The notes below the pieces were generated by a model. The model was given only the letters and a program-made list of their open reading frames with translations. It was not told the origin of the DNA and searched no databases. Below are positions 899 to 45,348 of a stretch of 49,681 nt of DNA, piece after piece; within the stretch, counting starts at the first letter, position 1; each line of letters begins with the position of its first letter. The position numbers and the translations under genes are program-made. The DNA comes from Craspedostauros australis (taxonomy: Eukaryota): contig JALAGF010006047.1 in the NCBI GenBank assembly GCA_030167865.1, positions 1 to 49,681 of the forward strand, read 5' to 3'.

Positions 899-3806
899 TC
901 ACGCGACAAAGAAACGAAGCAATGAAGTAATCAAGCAAGTGGCAGCTGCGCAAAGTATGGCACGCCAACCAGCATCGATGAAGGCGACCATGGCAAGAGA
1001 CGATGATGATGCTGATGATGCCAATGATGATGCCAATGATGATGCCAATGATGGATGACGAGCGGTGACGAACAGCGATCTCAAATGTGGCGCATCGCTC
1101 AGCGACATAAGAAAGGAAGATATCAAACCGACTGCTCCGGAGTAGAGAAGATCTTGGGGCATGGGCAATCGCAGTGCCAACAACAGAACCAACAGCCATG
1201 GCAAGAATGTCATGGCTGTGGCACGGTCTGGGTTCAAGTCTTCAGTGGCAGCGTCATCCATCTCAATCACTTTGGATGATTTGATATTCAAAGAGCGGAC
1301 GAAGTCCACCAATGTCACCTGATCCATGTATGAATCCACTTGTGCTGTACCCTCATCCTCATTGACAACCTTGTACAGCTCCATCATGGACATGCGACTG
1401 TACTCATCATCAATACCATCACTCTCCGCTCCCCCACTGCAAAGGAAATGAATGTCTCCCATCAGTTGCTGGTGTGGAAATAGTTTCTTGAAATCTGGAT
1501 GAGTGAACAGTGTATTCTCATGTTCACCTGCCATTCTCATTGCTGCATCCTTCAACACCAAGCAGTTGTGTTGATCGGCAAATATCAACACATCTATCAT
1601 GGTGTCCTCTGTGAGATGCTTGTGGGTCAATTCTGCTTCAAGAGCAAGCTTGAGTCGCCAAAAGCCGAACTCATTGGCCACAAAGACGAGCTGTTGCAGA
1701 TCGTCCTGTCCATTGAGGGTGTGAGTTGGCTGGTGAGAGGCATCTGCATTGGCGTTGCCATTATGAGTGTTGTCGTCGAAGGATATCTCACCGGTGTAGA
1801 TGCATTGGAGGACATATCGGACGTGTTTTGGTTGAAGGTTGGGGAGAGGGATGGTTGTTTCGATGGGGACCGCGCCGTCTTCGGTGCCATCATTCGCGTG
1901 CTGGTGTTGGATTCCTTTGTTGATCAGTGTCTGAATGGATGGAACAGTGACCGTGAGGACTTCGGAGTTTGCCTTGATTGCTTGTTGGTCGTCCCCTTGT
2001 CCACACAGGAAGGTAATGTCTGCGATGGCCTCAGCACGAATAGCAACGAGACGATCTTGGTCGATGCTGATCTTGAGATGTTGTTTCAGCTGCTGTTTCA
2101 GTTGTTTGTTCTCTTGTTGACTATTCGAGAGCGTGTGCTGCATTTCTTCCTTCTGCTGTTTCAGTTGTTTGTTCTCCTGCTCATTCTCTTTCAACTGCTG
2201 CTGCAGTTGTGAGTTGCAGCGACTCAGATGTGTGAGACGGTTTATCTTGATTTGAAGTGTTGCATCGATCATATCGAGGGGGGTTTTGTTGTCTTTGTTT
2301 TTAATGTAGGTATCGGCATTGGCTGATGCAACGAGGTACGCAACACACTCCAGGTGGCCTTTGGAGCATGCCCAATGAAGGGGAGTCCAACCATTGTTGT
2401 CTTTGCAGTTGATGTCCGCCTCACATGATTTGATGAGGTACTTGGCACACTCCAGGTGGCCGTTGCAGCATGCCAGATGAAGGGGAGTGGAACCATACTT
2501 GTTTTTGCAGTTGATGTCCGCCTCACATGATTCGATGAGGTACTTGACACACTCCAGCTGGCCGTTCCAGCATGCATCATGAAGGGGAGTGTCACCATCG
2601 TTGTCTTTGCGGCTGATGTCCGCCTCACATGATTCGATGAGGTACTTGACACACTCTAGGTGGCCGTTGTAGCATGCCCGATGAAGGGGAGTGGAACCAT
2701 CGTTGTTTTTGCAGTTGATGTCCGCCTCACATGATTCGATGAGGTACTTGACACACTCCAGGTGGCCGTTCCAGCATGCATCATGAAGGGGAGTCCAACC
2801 ATTGTTGTTTTTGCAGCTGATGTCCGCCTCACATGATTCGATGAGGTACTTGACACACTCCAGGTGGCCGTTGTAGCATGCCAGATGAAGGGGAGTGGAA
2901 CCATACTTGTTTTTGCAGTTGATGTCCGCCTCACATGATTCGATGAGGTACTTGACACACTCCAGGTGGCCGTTCCAGCATGCATCATGAAGGGGAGTGT
3001 CACCAGAGTTGTCTTTGCAGCTGATGTCCGCCTCACATGATTCGATGAGGTACTTGACACACTCCAGCTGGCCGTTGTAGCATGCCCGATGAAGGGGAGT
3101 CCTGTCGCGACATGGGTTATAAGCGTTAATTTCTTGTGTTCATGCAGGGCGTGGACTGGCTCCGTGGTTCGATTCCGCAGCGCGCTATTTTAACATGGTA
3201 GCGTGGCCTAAGGTTCGATTCCGTCGGCTGGTACCCACCCCTGCNNNNNNNNNNNNNNNNNNNNNNNNNNNNNNNNNNNNNNNNNNNNNNNNNNNNNNNN
3301 NNNNNNNNNNNNNNNNNNNNNNNNNNNNNNNNNNNNNNNNNNNNNNNNNNNNNNNNNNNNNNNNNNNNNNNNNNNNATGGGTTATAAGCGTTAATTTCTT
3401 GTGTTCATGCAGGGCGTGGACTGGCTCCGTGGTTCGATTCCGCAGCGCGCTATTTTAACAGAGTCCAACCATCGTTGTTTTTGCAGTTGATGTCCGCCTC
3501 ACATGATTCGATGAGGTACTTGACACACTCCAGCTGGCCATTGTAGCATGCCCGATGAAGGGGAGTGGAACCATCGTTGTCTTTGCAGTTGATGTCCGCC
3601 TCACATGATTCGATGAGGTACTTGACACACTCCAGGTGGCCGTTGTAGCATGCCAGATGAAGGGGAGTCATACCAATCCTGTCTGTAACCTTGTTGACAT
3701 CAACTCCTTCGTTCTGTGCCTCGTTCTGCTTCTTCCATTCCTTCAACACCCACAAGTGACCTGCCCAGGTAGCATCAATGAGTTGTTTGTTTGTGACATT
3801 CGGCAT
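899..3806 (-). CDS. Ankyrin-repeat + coiled-coil + BTB/POZ(-BACK-like) protein, interrupted by an LTR-type insertion at 3103-3460
   Basis: ATG at 3806 (MPNVTNKQLIDA...). Ten TPLHxACxNGxLECVKYLIESCEADI ankyrin units. The frame is open from 3102 through ...KNKDNKTPLDMIDATLQ into ORF 899..2272. That ORF has a QLKQQ coiled coil and BTB hallmarks (ADITFLC, HVRYVLQCIYTGEI, LVFVANEFGFWRLK, VLIFADQHNCLVLKDAAM). Confidence 0.88.
3103..3460 (+). mobile_element. Short-LTR retroelement (TRIM-like) with 93-bp TG...CA LTRs, a PBS and a 6-bp TSD; interior partly in an N gap
   Basis: LTR1 is 3103-3195 (TGTCGCGACA...TTTTAACA). The visible part of LTR2 (3377-3460) is identical. PBS-like TGGTAGCG follows LTR1 directly at 3196. 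GAGTCC is duplicated at 3097-3102 and 3461-3466, and sister repeats show the empty site GAAGGG-GAGTCC-AACC. Ns at 3245-3376 leave the true length unknown. Confidence 0.88.
3146..3191 (+). ncRNA. Putative Pol III tRNA-like minihelix (acceptor stem + T arm) inside the LTR
   Basis: TATAA at 3118-3122. AGGGCGT (3146-3152) can pair with GCGCGCT (3180-3186) with one mismatch. T arm CGTGG-TTCGATT-CCGCA contains a perfect B box GGTTCGATTCC (3166-3176). Discriminator-like A3187 is followed by TTTT. The structure is inferred and expression is unknown. Confidence 0.4.
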
Positions 3807-33961: not shown

Positions 33962-35908
33962 CTACCAATTCTGGATGGTTGCCTCCGCGTACCTTGATTT
34001 GGACGAATTCACCTTGTTGTCCACCCAATCCTTGTCCTTGTAAAAGTGATGCACCAACAGTTGCGGCGGCTGCTGCGACGTTGCAGATGGAGACCCATCG
34101 GCGCAATTCACGTTGATCAGAACGTACTCGTCACCTGCGTGGTGCTGATACTCTTCGCAGGATTTGGGCACGGGATTGACGAACTTGCTGATGATGCCAA
34201 CGACGACATCTTGGTTCAACGCGAAGCTGCGTTCATCCCATCGGTTGGCTGGCTTCCTGTAGCACTGTAGGAGCCTCAACCCCGTTCCCGTGCAATTCAG
34301 ATGCCTTGAGCTGTATTCCCTCAACGGATAGACAATGTGGTTCAGATCCGATTCGAAGAACATCTCGCCGACTGGTGTTGGATGATGTGCTATGTTCGTC
34401 CACCGGCCCTGCATCAGTCCTTCCAACACCCATGGCAAGAACTCGACCACCAGAGACCCCGGCGGCATGAAGAGGGCCTCCGTCAGCTGCGCGCCATGGA
34501 TTCCGATCAGACCATCCAGCGCGGCATGCGCCACCAGATGCTTCACAGGACTCGCCATACTGCCGTCCTCGAGGTTGACCTCAACGCAACGCACCTTGGC
34601 ATCCTTGAAGACCAGGTTGCAATAGTTCTCGGATGATCGCAGACGAAGCCAGCGACGACGAGTGTTGCGCTGCGCCAATCCGATGATCTTGTAGTCTTTC
34701 GTGTTCTTGATGTCCTTCTCTTTTACGCCTTTGGAGATCAGGTACTGCCTCCGCTTGGCTTCGACGGCGTCCTTCACGAAAGGGTCATCTTCCACGAACG
34801 CCTTGCGCAGGAAGCGCCGTGCTATTTCCAGCCTGAGAGGCACATTGCGTTGCTTTCCCACCAGCTTCACCGTTCCAACACCCCCGTCCTCTTCCAGCAG
34901 GTCTTTGTCTTTATCGTCTTTTCTGAAACCACAGAAGAACATACGCTGCACGCACTGGCATTTGGTGTTGTCGAAGAGTATGGATAAAGGAGCAATCGGG
35001 TTGGACGAAAAGGATTCCAGGAGCAACCGATGGCTTTCCAGCAGCTTCATGCGATTGCTGTCTTCACCAAGACCCAGACCCAAATACAGCTGAGTTTGCC
35101 ACCTGAATGTTTCCAGGAATGCAAACAGCTTGTCTTCAGCTGCTGCCGTCGCTCCATCTGCACTTGCATCTGTTTGTGGCATTGTCACATCAGCGATGGC
35201 CTTCAGCAACATTAGGGTTGGGAAGAAGACGCGAACGTAGAATTCACCGAGCATGCTCGTGAACGAACCTTGCAGGATCATGTGGTTGGGCACGGGGGAG
35301 TAGTTGCATCGCCTCATGGCCTGCTGCAAAGTCGCGTTCGAAGCTGGGGTGAGCGGCATGGACGGTTTGATCTCGAAATTCCTTTGGTACGGATTGAAGC
35401 TGTTTCGGCTCAGGTTGTTCTCGAAGTGGATCTTGCTCTTTGGTTGGTGCGGGTTAGGTATCGGCGCCAATCCGTGCTGCTCGGTGGCAACGTGGTGCAT
35501 GGTGGTGTCGTAGAACCAGTTCTGTTGCTGGAAGCAGACGTGCTCGACGTGGTGGCATGACTTCGCCAGTTCCGCGTTGGCGCTCCAGCTGGCGATGTCA
35601 AACCAATCCGCCTTCTGCCATCGTTCGTTCTTGGATTGCGTTCCATTCGGATGCTGCTTCCCAAGCAAGGAACGATTCATCTCCTCTTCCGTCATCTGCG
35701 ACGATGATGTCGGCGCGACCTGTTCATCATCTTCAACCCTGGAGATGGCGCGTTGATCCAGTATTGCGCTTGTCGTTCGCCATGAATTGCACAGCTGCAC
35801 GGCGCAGAAAACGGCAAAGAGCACCATCCACGCACCGCGCCACGGAAAGGGTCTAGCGTTGCTGTCATTGTCCATGGATCTCGATCGAATCGGTGCGTTG
35901 TTCGGCAT
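33962..35908 (-). CDS. Glycosyltransferase family 61-like type II membrane protein, copy 1
   Basis: N-terminal TM (AWMVLFAVFCAVQL); GLAQR..RRRW; LIGIHGAQLTEALFMPPGSLVVEFLP matches the GT61 HGA motif. Start uncertain (35908 or 35876). Confidence 0.8.
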   Translation of the reverse strand: MPNNAPIRSRSMDNDSNARPFPWRGAWMVLFAVFCAVQLCNSWRTTSAILDQRAISRVEDDEQVAPTSSSQMTEEEMNRSLLGKQHPNGTQSKNERWQKADWFDIASWSANAELAKSCHHVEHVCFQQQNWFYDTTMHHVATEQHGLAPIPNPHQPKSKIHFENNLSRNSFNPYQRNFEIKPSMPLTPASNATLQQAMRRCNYSPVPNHMILQGSFTSMLGEFYVRVFFPTLMLLKAIADVTMPQTDASADGATAAAEDKLFAFLETFRWQTQLYLGLGLGEDSNRMKLLESHRLLLESFSSNPIAPLSILFDNTKCQCVQRMFFCGFRKDDKDKDLLEEDGGVGTVKLVGKQRNVPLRLEIARRFLRKAFVEDDPFVKDAVEAKRRQYLISKGVKEKDIKNTKDYKIIGLAQRNTRRRWLRLRSSENYCNLVFKDAKVRCVEVNLEDGSMASPVKHLVAHAALDGLIGIHGAQLTEALFMPPGSLVVEFLPWVLEGLMQGRWTNIAHHPTPVGEMFFESDLNHIVYPLREYSSRHLNCTGTGLRLLQCYRKPANRWDERSFALNQDVVVGIISKFVNPVPKSCEEYQHHAGDEYVLINVNCADGSPSATSQQPPQLLVHHFYKDKDWVDNKVNSSKSRYAEATIQNW

Positions 35909-36504
35909 ATTTGATGGTTTGGCTTGCAGCTTGGCTGCTTGTACATACAAGTACTCGTGCAGCAACGTAGGCAACGAGTGAAGTGGAGACTGAAGCGGAG
36001 CTTCCCTGAGCCGCCACATCCTCTTCGATGACCTCTCTCCTTGGGACATCATTTCAGGGAGTTTGTTCATGTCTTTCTGCCGACCAATCCCTCCTCGTTT
36101 TTTGGCGCCTTTTGTTCTCCTTTCATTTTCTCCATTTGGCGTCAGTCGATTGCGTCAATTATCGTCCTATGTCTTTTTTGTGGACCAACTCGAACACGAC
36201 AGAATCGAAACGAACGTGTCCGAACAGTCTCATTTCACGAACAACTACGTTCGAGGGTATCAACGACTCAGATGAGAAAAGGGAGCTAGGGTAAATATAC
36301 AATACGTATATTTCCATTGTTGACCGTCGCTTCCATCACAGCAAAGCAACAGATCAACCACCTCCAATGGGTGACGAAGCATCTACGAGTGGGGAATACT
36401 AGTGGGGGGCCGGCTACCGAGCATACTATTTTCCTGCAGTCTCCAACACACCATTGCATCAGGACGCGGCCATACCATTGAGTATCGACGATGGATCCGC
36501 CTCT

Positions 36505-38577
36505 TCACTTGCCTTCGCTCTTCATCTCCTCGTACCTCGACTTGGACGAGTTCACCTTGTTGTCCACCCAATTCTTGTCCCTGTAGAAGTGATGCACCAA
36601 CAGTTGCGGCGGCTGCTGCTGCTGTTGGGAAATTGCAGATGGATCCTCAGGAGATTTATCGGCGCAATTCACGTTGGCCAGAACATACTCGTCGCCTGCT
36701 AGGCTCTGATACTCTTCACATGATCTGGGCACGGGATTGACGAACTTGCTGATGATGTCAGCGACCACATTTTCGTTGATTGAGAAAGCTCGATTATCCC
36801 ATCGATTGGCTGGCTTCTTGTAGCACGTAAAAAAGCCCCTTCCAGTCCCTTTGCAGCCAATGTGCGATGCGCTTTCCTCTCTCAGCGGATACGCGATGTG
36901 GTTCAGATCTGTGTTGGAGAACATTTCCCCGACTGGCGTTGGTCCATGGGCCACGTTAGTCCACCGGCCCTGCATCAGTCCTTCCAACACCCATGGCAAG
37001 AATTCGACCACCAGAGACCCCGGAGGCATGAAGAGGGCTTCCGTTAACTGTGCACCATGGATTCCGATCAGGCCATCCAGCGCGGCATGTGCCACCAGGT
37101 GCTTCACCGGACTTGCCATGCTTGTCTTCTCGATGTTTATCACCACGCAATAGACCTTGTCGTTCTTGAAGACTTCGTTGCACTTGTCGACGGATGATTC
37201 CACGTTCAGCCATCTACGACGAGTGTCACGCTGAGCCAACCCGATGATCTTGTATTCCTTCGTGTCCTTGATATCCTCCTCTCTTACGCCCTTGGGTATC
37301 AGGTACTCTCTGCGCTTGGCTTCGACGGCATCGTTCACGATAGAATCATCCTCCACGAAGACCTTGCGCAGGAATCGCCGCGCCAGCTCGAAGTTGAGCC
37401 CCACGCCCGGTACCTTCCCAAGCAATTTTCTTGTTGCAACACTCGCATCTTCAATGAGCAGGTTCTCATCGTCGTCGTTGTTGTTCGTCTTCTTGAATCC
37501 GCAGAAGAACAGACGCTGGACGCACTGGCACTTGGCATTGTCAAAGAGAATAGGCAGAGGGGAAATCGGGTTCGATGAAAGGGATTCCAAGAACAATCGA
37601 TGGCTTTCCAGCAGCTTCAGACGATTCGTATCTTCGCCGAGACCCAAACCCAAGTACAGCTGGGTCTGCCACCTGAATGTTTCCAGGAATGCAAACAGCT
37701 TGGCTTCAGCTACTCGCATCGATCTATTGCCTCTTGCCTTTACTGTTGGCATTGTCACATCAGCAATGGCCTTCAGCAGCTGGAGGGTTGGGAAGAAGAT
37801 TCGAACGTAGAATTCACCGAGCATGCTGGAGTATGTTCCTTGGAGGATCATGTGGTTGGGAATGGGGGAGTAGTTGCATCCCTCCATAGCCTGTTGCAAA
37901 GTTCGCTTCGAATCTGGATTCAGCGGCATAGTCGGCTGAATCTCAAACTGCATGAAGTATGGGTTGATGTGGTGTCTTGACAAGTAAGAGTTGAATTGCA
38001 CGCTCGTCTTTGGTTGATGCGGATTGGATATCGGTGCCAACCCATGCTGTTCCGTGGCAGTGTGATGCATCGTGGTATCGTAGAACCATTGCTGGTGCTG
38101 GAAGCAGACGTGTTCAATATGACGGCACGACTTCTCCAGTTCTGGGTTGGTGTTCCACTTGGCGATATCAAACCAATCGGCCTTGTGCCATCGCTCGTTC
38201 TTGGATTGCGTACCGTTTGATGGTTGCTGCTGTTGTTGTTGCTGTTGTTCTCCAAGCAATGGATGATCGCTCCCATCGACTGTCGTCTCATTCGATGATG
38301 GCGGCTGCATTTGTGGCAATGGCAGCGCGACTTTTGCGTCCGCATTGCTCACTGGCATGGCATTTTGATCAATCACCCGTATGTCGTTGGTTGTCCTCCA
38401 TGATTTGGAAATTTGTGCCACGCAGAAAACGACGAGCAGAGTCACCCACACCTCACGCCATGAGATAGGTTTGGCGCCTCCGTCATTGTTCTTGGACGTC
38501 GATTGGCCCTGCGCCTTGGATGATAGCTTCGATGCTCTTTTTCTTTGGGACGATTCCTTCGACAACTTTGACGGCAT
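36505..38577 (-). CDS. Glycosyltransferase family 61-like protein, copy 2
   Basis: Collinear paralog of copy 1 with the same HGAQLTEALFMPPG motif; TM VWVTLLVVFCVAQI. Confidence 0.8.
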   Translation of the reverse strand: MPSKLSKESSQRKRASKLSSKAQGQSTSKNNDGGAKPISWREVWVTLLVVFCVAQISKSWRTTNDIRVIDQNAMPVSNADAKVALPLPQMQPPSSNETTVDGSDHPLLGEQQQQQQQQPSNGTQSKNERWHKADWFDIAKWNTNPELEKSCRHIEHVCFQHQQWFYDTTMHHTATEQHGLAPISNPHQPKTSVQFNSYLSRHHINPYFMQFEIQPTMPLNPDSKRTLQQAMEGCNYSPIPNHMILQGTYSSMLGEFYVRIFFPTLQLLKAIADVTMPTVKARGNRSMRVAEAKLFAFLETFRWQTQLYLGLGLGEDTNRLKLLESHRLFLESLSSNPISPLPILFDNAKCQCVQRLFFCGFKKTNNNDDDENLLIEDASVATRKLLGKVPGVGLNFELARRFLRKVFVEDDSIVNDAVEAKRREYLIPKGVREEDIKDTKEYKIIGLAQRDTRRRWLNVESSVDKCNEVFKNDKVYCVVINIEKTSMASPVKHLVAHAALDGLIGIHGAQLTEALFMPPGSLVVEFLPWVLEGLMQGRWTNVAHGPTPVGEMFSNTDLNHIAYPLREESASHIGCKGTGRGFFTCYKKPANRWDNRAFSINENVVADIISKFVNPVPRSCEEYQSLAGDEYVLANVNCADKSPEDPSAISQQQQQPPQLLVHHFYRDKNWVDNKVNSSKSRYEEMKSEGK

Positions 38578-39322: not shown

Positions 39323-42300
39323 CATATCCAAAAAGAAAATTTCTGTCTGGGGAGACCAAAGATGGCCATTTTGGGCTCAGGAGACAAAGTTACCCGGAGG
39401 TTCGCCAAAATCCGGTCAGAGGAGACAATTTTCAGTTCTACGTGATAAATCTCCACGATAGGATTTTTCGGTCGAATACTTCGACTAAAATAAATTCTGC
39501 CAGCTTTTTGTTCTGACATCTCCTCCTCCAAGATTTTCTTCATCGTCATTGTTTCTTCGCTTTCCTCCAGTTGGCAACAACCCTCCCTCTCCAACCTCCT
39601 TGCCTGCTGTGGTTCATTTCATCCCATCATCAACCTNGCACCTCCTTGCTTATCATTCNCAGCATCCCCCATACTGCCTTCTTCTTCCAGCTTGCCTTCT
39701 TCNATACGTCACCTTCATCATGGCATCTTCTCTTCCACCTGATGCTCCCAATGCCAATGACAACTTGCCCACAGCTTCCACTCCACTTGCAACAACCGGC
39801 CATGGAAATGTCTCTCCATCCCAACAGCTTCATCCCTTTGGACACGTTTTGGATGATGGAATGGGTGATGCAGGCAAGCACACCCATGAAGAAGAAGGAG
39901 ATGGCATCTNNNNNNNNNNNNNNNNNNNNNNNNNNNNNNNNNNNNNNNNNNNNNNNNNNTCATTCGCAGCATCCCCCATACTGCCTTCTTCTTCCAGCTT
40001 GCCTTCTTCGATACGTCACCTTCATCATGGCATCTTCTCTTCCACCTGATGCTCCCAATGCCAATGACAACTTGCCCACAGCTTCCACTCCACTTGCAAC
40101 AACCGGCCATGGAAATGTCTCTCCATCCCAACAGCTTCATCCCTTTGGACACGTTTTGGATGATGGAATGGGTGATGCAGGCAAGCACACCCATGAAGAA
40201 GAAGGAGATGGCATCTGTGTCAACAGTGATGACAAGGGCGCGGTGCCAACATTGGCGCCTCCAAATCCTGTTGGCGATTTTGGAGTCCAACCGTGCTCGC
40301 TTCCTGGCTACAGCCATCGCATCGTCCTCCCTCCGAAGAAAGGGAGTCGGGAGATCTCTGTGGAGTGGAAGGTGCTCTCAGCCTACGACCATGCAACAAA
40401 AGTGACTGTTGGAGAAGCGCACAAGCTTGCTCTCCTCCATGCAAAGGAAGAGATTTGTTCACTGCGAACAGTTGTCTTGCAACGCTTCCCCAAGAGTCCT
40501 CCTGGGTCTCTACCATACGTGCCAACACCCCATGACTTGATCCACAATGTGCTGGGTCCCACATCTCCCATTTTCATCCGTGCATTTGGCCCAAGTGGGC
40601 TGGGTTTCTCATATGCTGAGTACATGGAGTTCCTCTATGCCATCACATCACAGATGGTGGAAGGCTGCACCGTTCATCGGCTCTACAATGGCGGCAACGC
40701 TTCCACGCTTCCCAGCTTTCCTGCCAGACAGCACTGCGTCAATCTCTGGGATCGTATTTGACGCAATGGAAACCCTGTCTCTCGGAATGGCCATCGCTTT
40801 GTTTGGACCGAATTGGAAAGTGCTTTCAACTTGACGCTTGAGATTCTTTGTCTTCGNNNNNNNNNNNNNNNNNNNNNNGTCACATTGGATGATGACAAGG
40901 TCCATTGCAGCAGCCGTGCGGAGAGCAGCTATCTGCTTGGCATGAGACATACTCATGCAAATCGCAATGGGTAAGTGACGAACAGCATTGTGTCTTTTGT
41001 TGCAGAGGGGTGGCATCTCCATTTCATATTTCAATTCCTCACCCCAGGTCTCTGTCTTGTTTCCGTCTTCTGCATTCCTTCAGATTAACCCTGAACACTC
41101 TTGTCCAGTCTGCTTCTGGACTTGTTGTGGGGTTGGCTGCGTGCTAAGATGGGTTGGATGACGACACCTATTGGTTGTTCACCCAACTAAAAGAACCAGA
41201 TGGTTCTTTTCGAAATCTAACCCTCATGACAGATCGAGGATACAACTGCCGCAGCACCACCGTCTTCCTCACTCCCAGGGGTGCCAATCTGGAGGGTACA
41301 CACATGCGAGCTGGATACCTACCATTCACCTTCGGCCCATCCATTGGCAAGGGTACACTCCAGATGAATATTGGGAGGAAGGGGCCAAGGATGGTGCATA
41401 GTGCTGTCACCAACAGCATCGGCAAACGACAATTGACATGCTATGGATACCATCTCAACGAACAAACCGTACTTGCACTCTCCACAAGATCAAGTGGCTT
41501 CGAGTGGGACCTCACCCTCACCAATGCCAGTGACCAACAAAAGTACCAAGACATGGTGGAGGACAAGCATGGGAGCAATCCAAGATCTCCACACTACCCA
41601 CATTTCTTCCAAACATGCACTGTCAATCCAACACGATCGTCGGCAGTCAGAGCTGCCATATCCCAAACTCCCCTTGGCACAACTGGTGTTGTGGCTGCCG
41701 CATCCAAGAATGTGAAACAGCGTTGGGCAGATATGGTGTGGGATCTGCCTGTGGGTGGACTCACCTGTGGCCAGGGTGACCATCTGTGGTTCGTCCACTG
41801 CCGCTTCGCGTTCACAAGCACCTCCACCTACAGCATGATACAGAAGGTGCTTGAAAGTGGAGAGTGGTGCAACGCCGACAACGCTACCATATTCAATCAA
41901 CCTGCATGGGAGTGCATTGGCCGCTACTTGGGATATGATGTGCTTGGTCGGAAGGAGAAGTACCACAATGCGTTGCAAGTAGAAAAGGCGAGATTGCGCA
42001 CACTTAATTTATACTCCAAACTCACATCTCCCACCTTCGATTCCCATCATGTTGAAATTGCACTTCTCTCCTCTCTCCGCAACGATGCCCCTGAATAGGA
42101 TGCCTTCCCTGACAAAGACTTCATCGAACTCATGGTAATGTTCTACTGCAGCAAGGCCCAGCAAACCAGAGCCACACAATGCAAAATGCTCCGCACCATC
42201 CTCGCTGATGACGACAAGGTTCGACGGCGATTCGTGGCTGTCAGCGACGCCTCCCTCAAGAAAGACCTCAAAGCTCGTCTCCCCAACACCAACACAACGA

Positions 42301-43338: not shown

Positions 43339-45348
43339 CTACTGGTACCTTGATTTCGACGAGTTCACCTTGTTGTCCACCCAATCCTTGTCCCTGTAGA
43401 AGTGATGCACCAACAGTTGCGGCGGCTGCTGCTGCTGTTGGGAAATTGCAGATGGATCCTCAGGAGACTTATCGGCGCAATTCACGTTGGCCAGAACATA
43501 CTCGTCGCCTGCTAGGCGCTGATACTCTTCACAGGATCTGGGCACGGGATTGACGAACTTGCTGATGATGTCAGCGACCACATCTTCGTTGATTGAGAAA
43601 GCTCGATTATCCCATCGATTGGCCATGGCTCTGTAACACGTTAAAAAGTCCATTCCAGTCCCATTGCAGCCAATGTGCGATGCGCTTTCCTCTCTCAGCG
43701 GATACGCGATGTGGTTCAGATCTGTGTTGGAGAACATTTCTCCGACTGGCGTTGGTCCATGGGCTATGTTCGTCCACCGGCCCTGCATCAGTCCTTCCAA
43801 CACCCACGGCAAGAATTCGACCACCAGAGACCCCGGAGGCATGAAGAGGGCCTCCGTCAACTGTGCACCATGGATTCCGATCAGGCCATCCAGCGCCGCA
43901 TGTGCCACCAGATGCTTCACCGGACTTGCCATGTCTCTCTTCTCGATGTTTATCACCACGCAATAGACCTTGTCGTTCTTGAAGACTTCGTTGCACTTGT
44001 CGACGGATGATCCCACGTACAGCCAACGGCGACGACTTTCACGCTGGGCCAACCCGATGATCTTGTATTCCTTCGTGTCCTTGATATCCTCCTCTCTTAC
44101 GCCCTTGGACATCAGGTACTCTCTGCGCTTGGCTTCGACGGCATCGTTCACGATGGGATCGTCCTCCACGAAGACCTTGCGCAGGAATCGCCGTGCTATA
44201 TCTATCTTGATAGGCACCCTGTGTTGCTTTCCCACCAGTACCGGCACCCGAACACGTTCGTCCTCAATGAGCAGGTTCTCATCGTTGGCGTGGTTGTTGT
44301 TGTTCGTCTTCTTGAATCCGCAGAAGAAGAGACGCTGGACACACTGGCACTTGGCGTTGTCAAAGAGTACATGCAGAGGGGAAATCGGGTTCGATGAAAG
44401 GGATTCCAGGAACAATCGGTGGCTTTCCAGCAGCTTCAGACGATTCGTATCTTCGCCGAGACCCAAACCCAAGTACAGCTGGGTCTGCCACCTGAATGTT
44501 TCCAGGAATGCAAACAGCTTGGCTTCAGCTGCTCGCATCGATCTATTGCCTCTTGCCTTTACTGTTGGCATTGTCACATCAGCGATGGCCTTCAGCAGCT
44601 GGAGGGTTGGGAAGAAGATGCGAACATAGAATTCACCGAGCATGTTGGTGTATGTTCCTTGGAGGATCATGTGGTTGGGAATGGGGGAGTAGTTACATCC
44701 CTCCATAGCCTGTTGCAAGGTCATATTCGAATCTGGATTCAGCGGTATAGCCGGCTTCACCTCGAAATCCCTGAGGTAAGGGTTGGTGCGTTTTTTCCTC
44801 ACGTAGTTTGTGAAATGCACGCTCGTCTTTGGTTGATGCGGATTGGATATCGGAGCCAACCCATGCTGTTCCGTGGCAGTGTGATGCATCGTGGTATCGT
44901 AGAACCATTGCTGGTGCTGGAAGCAGACGTGCTCAATATGACGGCATGACTTCTCCAATTCTGGGTTGGCGTTCCACTTGGCGGCATCAAACCAATCGGC
45001 CTTGTGCCATCGCTCGTTCTTGGATTGCGTACCGTTTGATTGCTGCTGCTGCTGTTGTTCTCCAAGCAATGGATGATCGCTCTCATCGACTGTCGTCTCA
45101 TTCGATGATGACAGCGTGACTTCTGTATTTGCATTGATCGTGGGCATGTCGTTTTGACGAATCGCCTGTATGTCGTTGATTGTCGTCCATGGCTTGCAGA
45201 TTCGTGCGGCCCAGAAAATAATGAGCGGAGCAGTCCACACAACATGCCGTGGAAAGGATTTGACACTTCTGTCATTGTTCTTGGACGTCGATCGATCCGG
45301 TACCTTTGATGATCCCGCAGATGATGCCTTCAGAATGGTGGACGGCAT
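43339..45348 (-). CDS. Glycosyltransferase family 61-like protein, copy 3
   Basis: Very close paralog of copy 2 with the same GT61 motif, a weaker TM segment and a shorter C-terminus (SRYQ*). Confidence 0.8.
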   Translation of the reverse strand: MPSTILKASSAGSSKVPDRSTSKNNDRSVKSFPRHVVWTAPLIIFWAARICKPWTTINDIQAIRQNDMPTINANTEVTLSSSNETTVDESDHPLLGEQQQQQQSNGTQSKNERWHKADWFDAAKWNANPELEKSCRHIEHVCFQHQQWFYDTTMHHTATEQHGLAPISNPHQPKTSVHFTNYVRKKRTNPYLRDFEVKPAIPLNPDSNMTLQQAMEGCNYSPIPNHMILQGTYTNMLGEFYVRIFFPTLQLLKAIADVTMPTVKARGNRSMRAAEAKLFAFLETFRWQTQLYLGLGLGEDTNRLKLLESHRLFLESLSSNPISPLHVLFDNAKCQCVQRLFFCGFKKTNNNNHANDENLLIEDERVRVPVLVGKQHRVPIKIDIARRFLRKVFVEDDPIVNDAVEAKRREYLMSKGVREEDIKDTKEYKIIGLAQRESRRRWLYVGSSVDKCNEVFKNDKVYCVVINIEKRDMASPVKHLVAHAALDGLIGIHGAQLTEALFMPPGSLVVEFLPWVLEGLMQGRWTNIAHGPTPVGEMFSNTDLNHIAYPLREESASHIGCNGTGMDFLTCYRAMANRWDNRAFSINEDVVADIISKFVNPVPRSCEEYQRLAGDEYVLANVNCADKSPEDPSAISQQQQQPPQLLVHHFYRDKDWVDNKVNSSKSRYQ

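Follow-up and report, generated by a model that had tools for sequence, protein, structure and literature searches.

The 49,681-nucleotide stretch of DNA analysed in this work (positions 1 to 49,681 of the forward strand of contig JALAGF010006047.1, GenBank assembly GCA_030167865.1; hereafter, the window) comes from the diatom Craspedostauros australis and carries, between positions 3103 and 3460, a pair of very short direct repeats that interrupt a gene for an ankyrin-BTB protein. The element delimited by these repeats is probably a recently inserted, very small long terminal repeat (LTR) retrotransposon, likely a non-autonomous one of the terminal-repeat retrotransposon in miniature (TRIM) type, a few hundred bases long and lodged in a coding exon, similar to the Helenus elements and primed by the host initiator tRNA-Met (tRNA-iMet). 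A first-pass annotation of the same DNA had put forward a bolder idea, namely that a tRNA-like module inside the repeat provides the element with its own primer. As described below, the motifs on which this idea was built are present, whereas the self-made primer itself is unsupported.

The left LTR occupies positions 3103–3195 of the forward (+) strand, on which all other features of the element are also given, and it comprises 93 nucleotides (nt) running from TGT to ACA (it starts with TGTCGCGAC and ends with ...TTTTAACA). The right LTR is visible at 3377–3460 (+) as 84 nt that proved identical to 3112–3195 in a self-comparison with blastn-short, with 0 such matches expected by chance. Its first 9 nt lie within an assembly gap of 132 N (3245–3376), which also covers the rest of the interior and any polypurine tract. 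The length of 93 nt was assigned to the repeat because of its TG start, of the 6-bp duplication described next and of a contig from a public run that ends exactly at 3103. This duplication, GAGTCC, is found at 3097–3102 and again at 3461–3466 (+), immediately outside the repeats. Thus, the locus shows the direct terminal repeats with TG..CA ends and the flanking target-site duplication of an LTR retrotransposon, and these traits, together with a primer-binding site (PBS) that abuts the left repeat, indicate that it is a true LTR-type insertion. No coding capacity is visible in the element, and the size implied by the scaffold is around 358 bp (93 + 172 + 93), a figure that includes a gap length estimated by the scaffolder in an assembly that misjudges gaps. 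The first 10 nt of the repeat, TGTCGCGACA (3103–3112), constitute a perfect palindrome holding both TG and CA, as seen in a blastn self-match.

Additional information on this locus came from run X1, the sole public run that matches this DNA, no RNA run having been listed. X1 consists of contigs of unspecified molecule type, which can show presence but not absence; the comparison covered 3040–3520, and the statements made here rest on the contigs among the matches listed. One X1 contig of 200 nt (depth 147.4) reproduces 3103–3244 with 0 differences, stops exactly at 3103 and continues for 58 nt past 3244, so the passage from repeat to PBS and leader exists as genuine sequence, and the boundary at 3103 is a natural one. 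The depth in X1 is higher over 3108–3141 (300.7 and then 219.5 per bin, compared with 147.4 beyond), which by arithmetic fits a neighbouring contig overlapping the first 30 nt of the repeat.

The gene that received the insertion lies on the reverse (−) strand at 899–3806, with its ATG at 3806 and its end at 899. The reading frames are open on either side of the element (3806, the ATG, to 3462 on one side and 3100 to 902 on the other), and the excision of 3103–3466 yields ...NNDGWTPLHRACYNG..., a normal repeat unit, and fuses both open frames. The joined protein is recognized by Pfam as containing ankyrin repeats (Ank, E 3.1e-90) and a BTB domain (E 8.7e-06). It is encoded by 102-nt tandem units, 82–90% identical, that extend from 3771 down to about 2190 and specify some 10 near-identical ankyrin repeats of 34 residues, followed by a coiled-coil-like Q/K-rich stretch, the BTB domain and a hydrophobic tail, and its reading frame is intact apart from the insertion. 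In X1, three contigs carry a direct joint between 3096 and 3461, at which 6 letters could be assigned to either flank, and one contig agrees with 3040–3102 at 0 differences before going on with other letters in place of the element. This empty-site form suggests that the insertion may be polymorphic or heterozygous; the evidence is suggestive and not proof, because paralogous ankyrin units resemble each other. Considering the identity of the repeats, the otherwise intact frame of the host gene and the empty-site form, the insertion looks very recent.

The nature of the primer can be approached from the PBS, TGGTAGCGTGG (3196–3206), which directly adjoins the left repeat; the 10-nt version proposed in the first-pass annotation, TGGTAGCGTG, is indeed located at 3196–3205. 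The two copies agree in placing the end of the repeat at 3195, which means that the last base of the primer pairs with T3196 and, therefore, that the primer ends in CCA. The PBS is the complement of a tRNA 3′ end ...CCACGCUACCA, and it hence predicts a tRNA ending in ...CCACGCUA before the addition of CCA. The A at 3200 implies that position 72 of this tRNA is a U, a base that, when it faces A1, characterizes the initiator tRNAs of eukaryotes and archaea. The first 8 nt of the PBS, TGGTAGCG, coincide with the start of an antisense probe for yeast tRNAiMet, as given in the available part of one report (PMC11791190), and with the start of the Ty1-H3 primer at nt 335, as given in the corresponding part of another (PMC7055915), and tRNA-Met is the commonest PBS type among plant LTR elements (39%, according to the available text of PMC6317226). 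Judged from the PBS alone, the primer is most likely the host initiator tRNA-Met. A purpose-built pattern search retrieved two genes for tRNA-Met(cat) whose acceptor is AGCGTGG/CCACGCTA, one in an archaeal metagenome-assembled genome and one in a viral contig, which show only that such tRNAs exist and have no bearing on the host. Looked up in the literature, the PBS string and its complement led only to unrelated primers. The only near-match to the PBS in the window, at 41879–41889 (1 mismatch), lies within ordinary coding-like sequence with no repeat alongside. As a separate observation, genes for tRNA-Tyr, tRNA-Met(cat) and tRNA-Pro are tightly clustered in a viral contig (L154, 108–373), where the Met acceptor is of the A1:U72 type (AGCGTGG/CCACGCT).

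The PBS appears to be embedded in an extensive structure. When either 3146–3244 or 3103–3244 was folded, the 7–9 pairs involving the PBS formed the tip of one long imperfect hairpin of 101 nt (3144–3244), in which GCAGGGCGTGGACTGGCT... (from 3144 on) pairs with ...GGCTGGTACCCACCCCTGC (up to 3244). About 45 imperfect pairs are thus predicted between the R (repeated) and U5 (unique 5′) regions of the LTR, 3144–3190, and the PBS plus leader, 3197–3244. The folding energy of this hairpin is −45.3 kcal/mol. Of the 4892 windows of that length in the 49.7-kb sequence, only 0.2% fold as well, and when the comparison is restricted to GC-matched windows, 0.5% of 956 do so (mean −30.9, standard deviation (sd) 5.9). 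Taken without the stem at the PBS, the basal duplex (3144–3179 with 3207–3244) has −34.4 kcal/mol, which compares with −22.8 (sd 3.6) for shuffled sequences and is reached by 4 out of 1000 of them; the apical duplex (3176–3195 with 3196–3210), at −12.6 kcal/mol, is equalled by 101 of 1000 shuffles. A second small hairpin, enclosing the TATAA mentioned below, is predicted in the U3 (unique 3′) part of the repeat (3109–3140) in the fold of 3103–3244.

These results bear directly on the 10-nt complementarity with the PBS that had been attributed to the 3′ end of the tRNA-like module. Seven of those pairs stand, since they are templated (3181–3187 with 3199–3205, one of them a G·U), whereas the other three are contributed by a hypothetical, non-templated CCA. 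In the window, 7-mers able to pair with 3199–3205 occur at a frequency of 0.0026 per position, and at least one is present anywhere in 691 of 5000 dinucleotide-shuffled R-U5 sequences, and the complementarity with the PBS, taken alone, is no evidence for a self-primer. The alternative contemplated in the first-pass annotation, a simple hairpin between U5 and the leader, is the one favoured by the statistics (both that for the windows of equal length and that for the basal duplex), and at 101 nt the structure is far larger than was then noted. On this reading, the segment 3181–3187 of U5 would resemble the 3′ end of the primer only as a by-product of the hairpin, U5 and the primer both being complementary to the PBS.

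The motifs that had been interpreted as a tRNA mimic are all found at the places reported: TATAA at 3118–3122, a putative promoter element located 24–28 nt upstream of 3146; AGGGCGT at 3146–3152, followed by 10 nt; CGTGG, TTCGATT and CCGCA at 3163–3179; GCGCGCT at 3180–3186; A3187; TTTT at 3188–3191, possibly a weak RNA polymerase III (Pol III) stop; and ACA at the end of the repeat, in 3195. The B-box that had been called perfect is likewise present, as the exact 11-mer GGTTCGATTCC at 3166–3176, and a second exact copy is found 46 nt downstream, in the leader (3212–3222), preceded by GCGTGG as in the repeat. Across the 49.7 kb, this 11-mer has three matches with at most one mismatch (at 3166, 3212 and 3431), all within the element, while 1.02 were expected; a count of three was reached by 6 of 100 shuffles, and the motif was taken as a genuine feature. 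The direct local alignment of 3144–3195 with 3196–3244 gives a score of 25, reached by 30 of 2000 shuffles, and both arms carry, in direct orientation, GCGTGG, a spacer and GGTTCGATTCCG, which suggests a duplicated tRNA-derived unit straddling the boundary of the repeat. The pair G53:C61 and the residues U55/C56 are invariant in tRNAs. The possibility that the leader represents a read-through antisense copy of the primer tRNA was considered and rejected, because the antisense reading breaks these invariants, whereas the sense reading gives the exact B-box.

The module that these motifs would compose (3146–3187, with its acceptor-like strands, T-arm-like hairpin, exact B-box, A-box-like match and A3187) is not detectably tRNA-like. 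The strands of the proposed acceptor stem and T arm do exist, but both stems are imperfect: the acceptor-like stem (3146–3152 with 3180–3186) forms 6 of 7 pairs, with one G·G mismatch and one terminal G·U, and the T-like stem, within 3163–3179, forms 4 of 5 pairs, with one C·A mismatch and one G·U. The resulting minihelix of 42 nt has a predicted energy of −12.2 kcal/mol, against a shuffle mean of −14.4 (z +0.88), and 167 of 200 shuffled sequences are at least as stable. Likewise, ARAGORN predicted 0 tRNA genes in the window and Rfam gave no match at gathering thresholds; on 3080–3244, with E values up to 10, Rfam yielded no tRNA match and only a T-arm match of 13.6 bits to the tmRNA model. 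By all these measures (stability, mismatches, ARAGORN and Rfam), the module lacks stable acceptor and T-arm helices of the sort recognized by tRNA models. An A-box-like sequence, TGGCTCCGTGG, is found at 3157–3167, with one mismatch to the consensus, but it overlaps the B-box, and matches of this kind appear in the window at chance frequency (17 found versus 18.18 expected). Furthermore, unless Pol III reads through the TTTT of U5, it would terminate there and never reach the PBS, and the production of a full-length RNA by Pol III is therefore not straightforward. What was borne out is the existence of a tRNA-type T-loop/B-box motif inside a real LTR with an abutting PBS.

This combination brings to mind the Helenus elements, which, according to the available part of the description by Kojima (2024; PMC10886601), occur in fungi, animals and plants, range from 311 to 1263 bp and generate 4- or 5-bp duplications. 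The resemblance includes a short LTR element with the PBS beside the 5′ LTR, a tRNA-type motif inside the LTR, the box B sequence GGTTC and, more doubtfully, the box A sequence TRGCY...YGG, present here as TGGCT...TGG. The differences are also several, and membership in Helenus/TRIMp3 is no more than tentative. The host here is a diatom, the duplication has 6 bp and the gap conceals the total length; the A-like and B boxes overlap, without the spacing of a tRNA, and no tRNA finder (ARAGORN, Rfam) calls the module; TTTT is located inside U5 and the B-box appears again in the leader; and there are 7 templated pairs between LTR and PBS, while in Helenus none was reported. Indeed, in the same part of that work, no complementarity was found between the tRNA-like sequence of the Helenus LTRs and the PBS, and the tRNA-like sequence was concluded not to be the primer (PMC10886601).

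Other known systems offer partial parallels. Cassandra elements, which carry a 5S-derived module, are found in plants and measure 565–860 bp (PMC10886601, available text). They are, as the present element probably is, TRIMs with a module derived from a Pol III gene in their LTRs, but in Cassandra this module is 5S-derived and not of the tRNA type. With Ty1, the element shares a PBS that abuts the LTR and begins with TGGTAGCG, as well as the TG..CA ends. However, Ty1 has LTRs of roughly 330 bp and a 5-bp duplication, and it is autonomous, whereas the present element has no visible coding capacity. Stems between U5 and the leader or the PBS, in which U5 pairs across the PBS, are known in retroviruses and retrotransposons (for instance, in avian retrovirus and HIV-1), and here too the PBS is inside a structured domain; the difference is that the whole R-U5 is involved, through some 45 imperfect pairs, and that the two arms share a direct repeat with the T-loop motif. 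Among diatom elements, the CoDi copia elements are autonomous and have LTRs of 153–844 bp, as stated in the part of the paper available, a text with 0 occurrences of “tRNA” or “primer binding” when Additional file 1 is excluded (PMC2806351). No diatom TRIMs or tRNA-like LTRs were found in the literature searched.

All these observations could be integrated in the following model. Transcription would start near 3146, downstream of the TATAA, and the 5′ region of the RNA would fold, R-U5 pairing with the PBS and leader as the long hairpin. Host initiator tRNA-Met would then open the tip of the hairpin with its 3′ end, anneal to 3196–3206 and prime minus-strand synthesis, with reverse transcriptase and integrase presumably provided in trans by an autonomous element. 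The T-loop motifs would be relics of a tRNA-derived module or of one derived from a short interspersed nuclear element, as in Helenus/TRIMp3, although binding of TFIIIC or promotion of Pol III transcription may persist.

Several considerations weigh against this interpretation. The hairpin is marginal when compared with its own shuffles (a 99-nt version has a z of −1.85, with 9 of 200 shuffles reaching it), and pairing within the hairpin does not by itself account for a B-box that is repeated exactly and in the same sense. Duplications of 6 bp are rare, as they correspond to 0.4% of the plant LTR elements in the available text of one survey (PMC6317226). The interior is visible for only 49 nt (3196–3244) before the 132 N, and the gap conceals the remainder of it, the polypurine tract and the true size. 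A single copy of the element is known, and blastn-short gave no second copy in the 49.7-kb window. The assembly makes errors at gaps, as exemplified by the region 39653–40216 discussed next, and both gap lengths and gap-flanking sequence are unreliable. Finally, the tRNA-iMet assignment is drawn from the PBS alone.

The quality of the assembly is also the basis of a possible, although rather unlikely, alternative, according to which the locus is a 93-bp solo LTR, 3196–3244 is a wrong-branch extension into another copy of the family and the 132 N replace a true overlap. A precedent exists in this same assembly. Two 257-nt copies, 99% identical, surround a run of N at 39910–39959 (39653–40216 in all), with single N letters in the left copy. 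The right contig begins with the sequence that closes the left one, and this duplication reflects two overlapping contigs left unmerged, an artefact of the assembly in place of a true biological repeat. At the element, arithmetic indicates that the contigs would overlap by 133 nt, near the 132 N. It is also the case that, among the X1 contigs listed, none bridges flank and repeat on either side and 3380–3447 is uncovered, but X1 contigs show presence and not absence, and no inference was drawn from this. In contrast to what occurs at 39653–40216, after the shared 84 nt, the contig ends diverge, one entering the PBS and the other the flank, as in a real element with two repeats; moreover, the gap length is merely a scaffolder estimate. 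A solo LTR would leave the anatomy of the family unchanged, given the X1 contig that contains repeat, PBS and leader, and it would alter only the content of the ankyrin gene.

The model of the first-pass annotation, in which the repeat contains a Pol III mini-gene whose 42-nt RNA is trimmed after A3187, receives a CCA tail and primes on the PBS of the element itself, is very improbable. In its favour are an exact B-box, TATAA at −28, A3146 facing T3186 and A3187 being followed by TTTT, all of them present. The seven pairs between 3181–3187 and 3199–3205 (with their G·U) fall in a register that places CCA on TGG, precisely as the boundary at 3195/3196 demands of the primer, and the frequency of suitable 7-mers, about 0.0026 per position, is low if the position is regarded as a single, pre-specified one. 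Such a primer would also be a first, as no complementarity of this kind was found by Kojima in Helenus. Nevertheless, when the position is left free, the pairing is common among the shuffled R-U5 sequences, and it constitutes the tip of a hairpin whose significance does not depend on it. Most shuffles are at least as stable as the minihelix, whose stems contain the G·G and C·A mismatches, the module is missed by ARAGORN and by the Rfam tRNA model, and there is no separate A-box, since the only A-box-like match is the one, at chance frequency, overlapping the B-box. Wherever an RNA includes both arms, the minihelix (−12.2 kcal/mol) loses out to the long hairpin (−40 to −45). The PBS is, in addition, of the standard initiator-tRNA type, and a tRNA ending in CCACGCUACCA would form 11 perfect pairs with it, versus the 10, one of them G·U, of the self-made primer. 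In its broader form, that of a retrotransposon carrying its own tRNA-mimic primer either as a CCA-tailed Pol III RNA or as the identical tRNA-like tag with which the full-length RNA terminates, the notion is very improbable.

Self-priming of the Tf1/Tj1 type, in which a templated part of the transcript folds onto the PBS and is cleaved to yield the primer, with no tRNA and no CCA, appears highly improbable. This mechanism is established for Tf1 and has been proposed for many elements (PMC4600332 and PMC6317226, in the parts available), and the likeness lies in that the RNA of the element folds back onto its own PBS region, here through R-U5. In the known cases, as stated in the text available (PMC4600332), it is the mRNA 5′ end that the PBS complements, whereas here the putative 5′ end (3146–3156) pairs with 3233–3242, 37 nt beyond the boundary of the repeat, and the PBS opens with TGG, which suits a primer ended in CCA. 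Complementarity between the PBS and the mRNA 5′ end, the hallmark of Tf1/sushi elements, is thus absent. The sole templated partner of the PBS, 3181–3187, reaches T3199 and not T3196; with such a primer, U5 would end in TGG, whereas the right repeat ends in ...AACA. Lastly, that the whole structure is an assembly artefact of duplicated contig ends around a gap, with no mobile element, is scarcely credible, for although a gap-flanking duplication exists at 39653–40216, the locus has a 6-bp target duplication, TG..CA ends and a PBS abutting the repeat, the removal of the insertion exactly restores the host unit and frame, the sequences downstream of the two repeat copies differ and the independent X1 contig contains repeat, PBS and leader.

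If the reading as a small LTR retrotransposon primed by the host tRNA-iMet holds, LTR elements with tRNA-derived repeats would be extended to diatoms, in a compact design that combines a 93-nt repeat, overlapping A-like and B boxes, a T-loop motif on both sides of the boundary between repeat and leader and a PBS within a 101-nt hairpin. The family may still be active and could find use in this diatom as a marker or mutagen. The self-primer, if true, would represent a new way of starting reverse transcription, and it would bear on older ideas linking tRNA-like genomic tags and retroelements.

The search for related sequences was also extended to environmental data. A metagenome scan for two B-box 12-mers spaced 24–44 nt apart identified 102 loci, none of which had more than 17 nt in common with the element; they correspond to partial tRNA duplications, tandem arrays and similar arrangements. 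A scan of viral contigs for CATGGTAGCGTGGC gave 50 loci and, among the contexts listed, none continues like the element, while scans of the same contigs for two 20-mers of the element gave 0 loci each. Three of the metagenome loci (L009, L023 and L094) are tandem arrays of 36-nt units, each with the T-loop motif GGTTCGATTCCG, and a further locus, L043, is a tandem array of 19-nt units, each also carrying GGTTCGATTCCG.

Elsewhere in the window, a DUF6824 protein has 60 homologues, the best named match being a diatom transcriptome protein with 45% identity, and further homologues are labelled Nitzschia, Pseudo-nitzschia and Fragilariopsis, which identifies the host as a diatom. Three paralogous genes of around 670–700 codons, 80–96% identical over long stretches, are located on the reverse strand at 33962–36070, 36505–38577 and 43339–45348, and represent a local gene family expansion; one of them shows a weak match to Glyco_transf_61 (E 1.1e-05, 26.1 bits, with a cut-off of 27).

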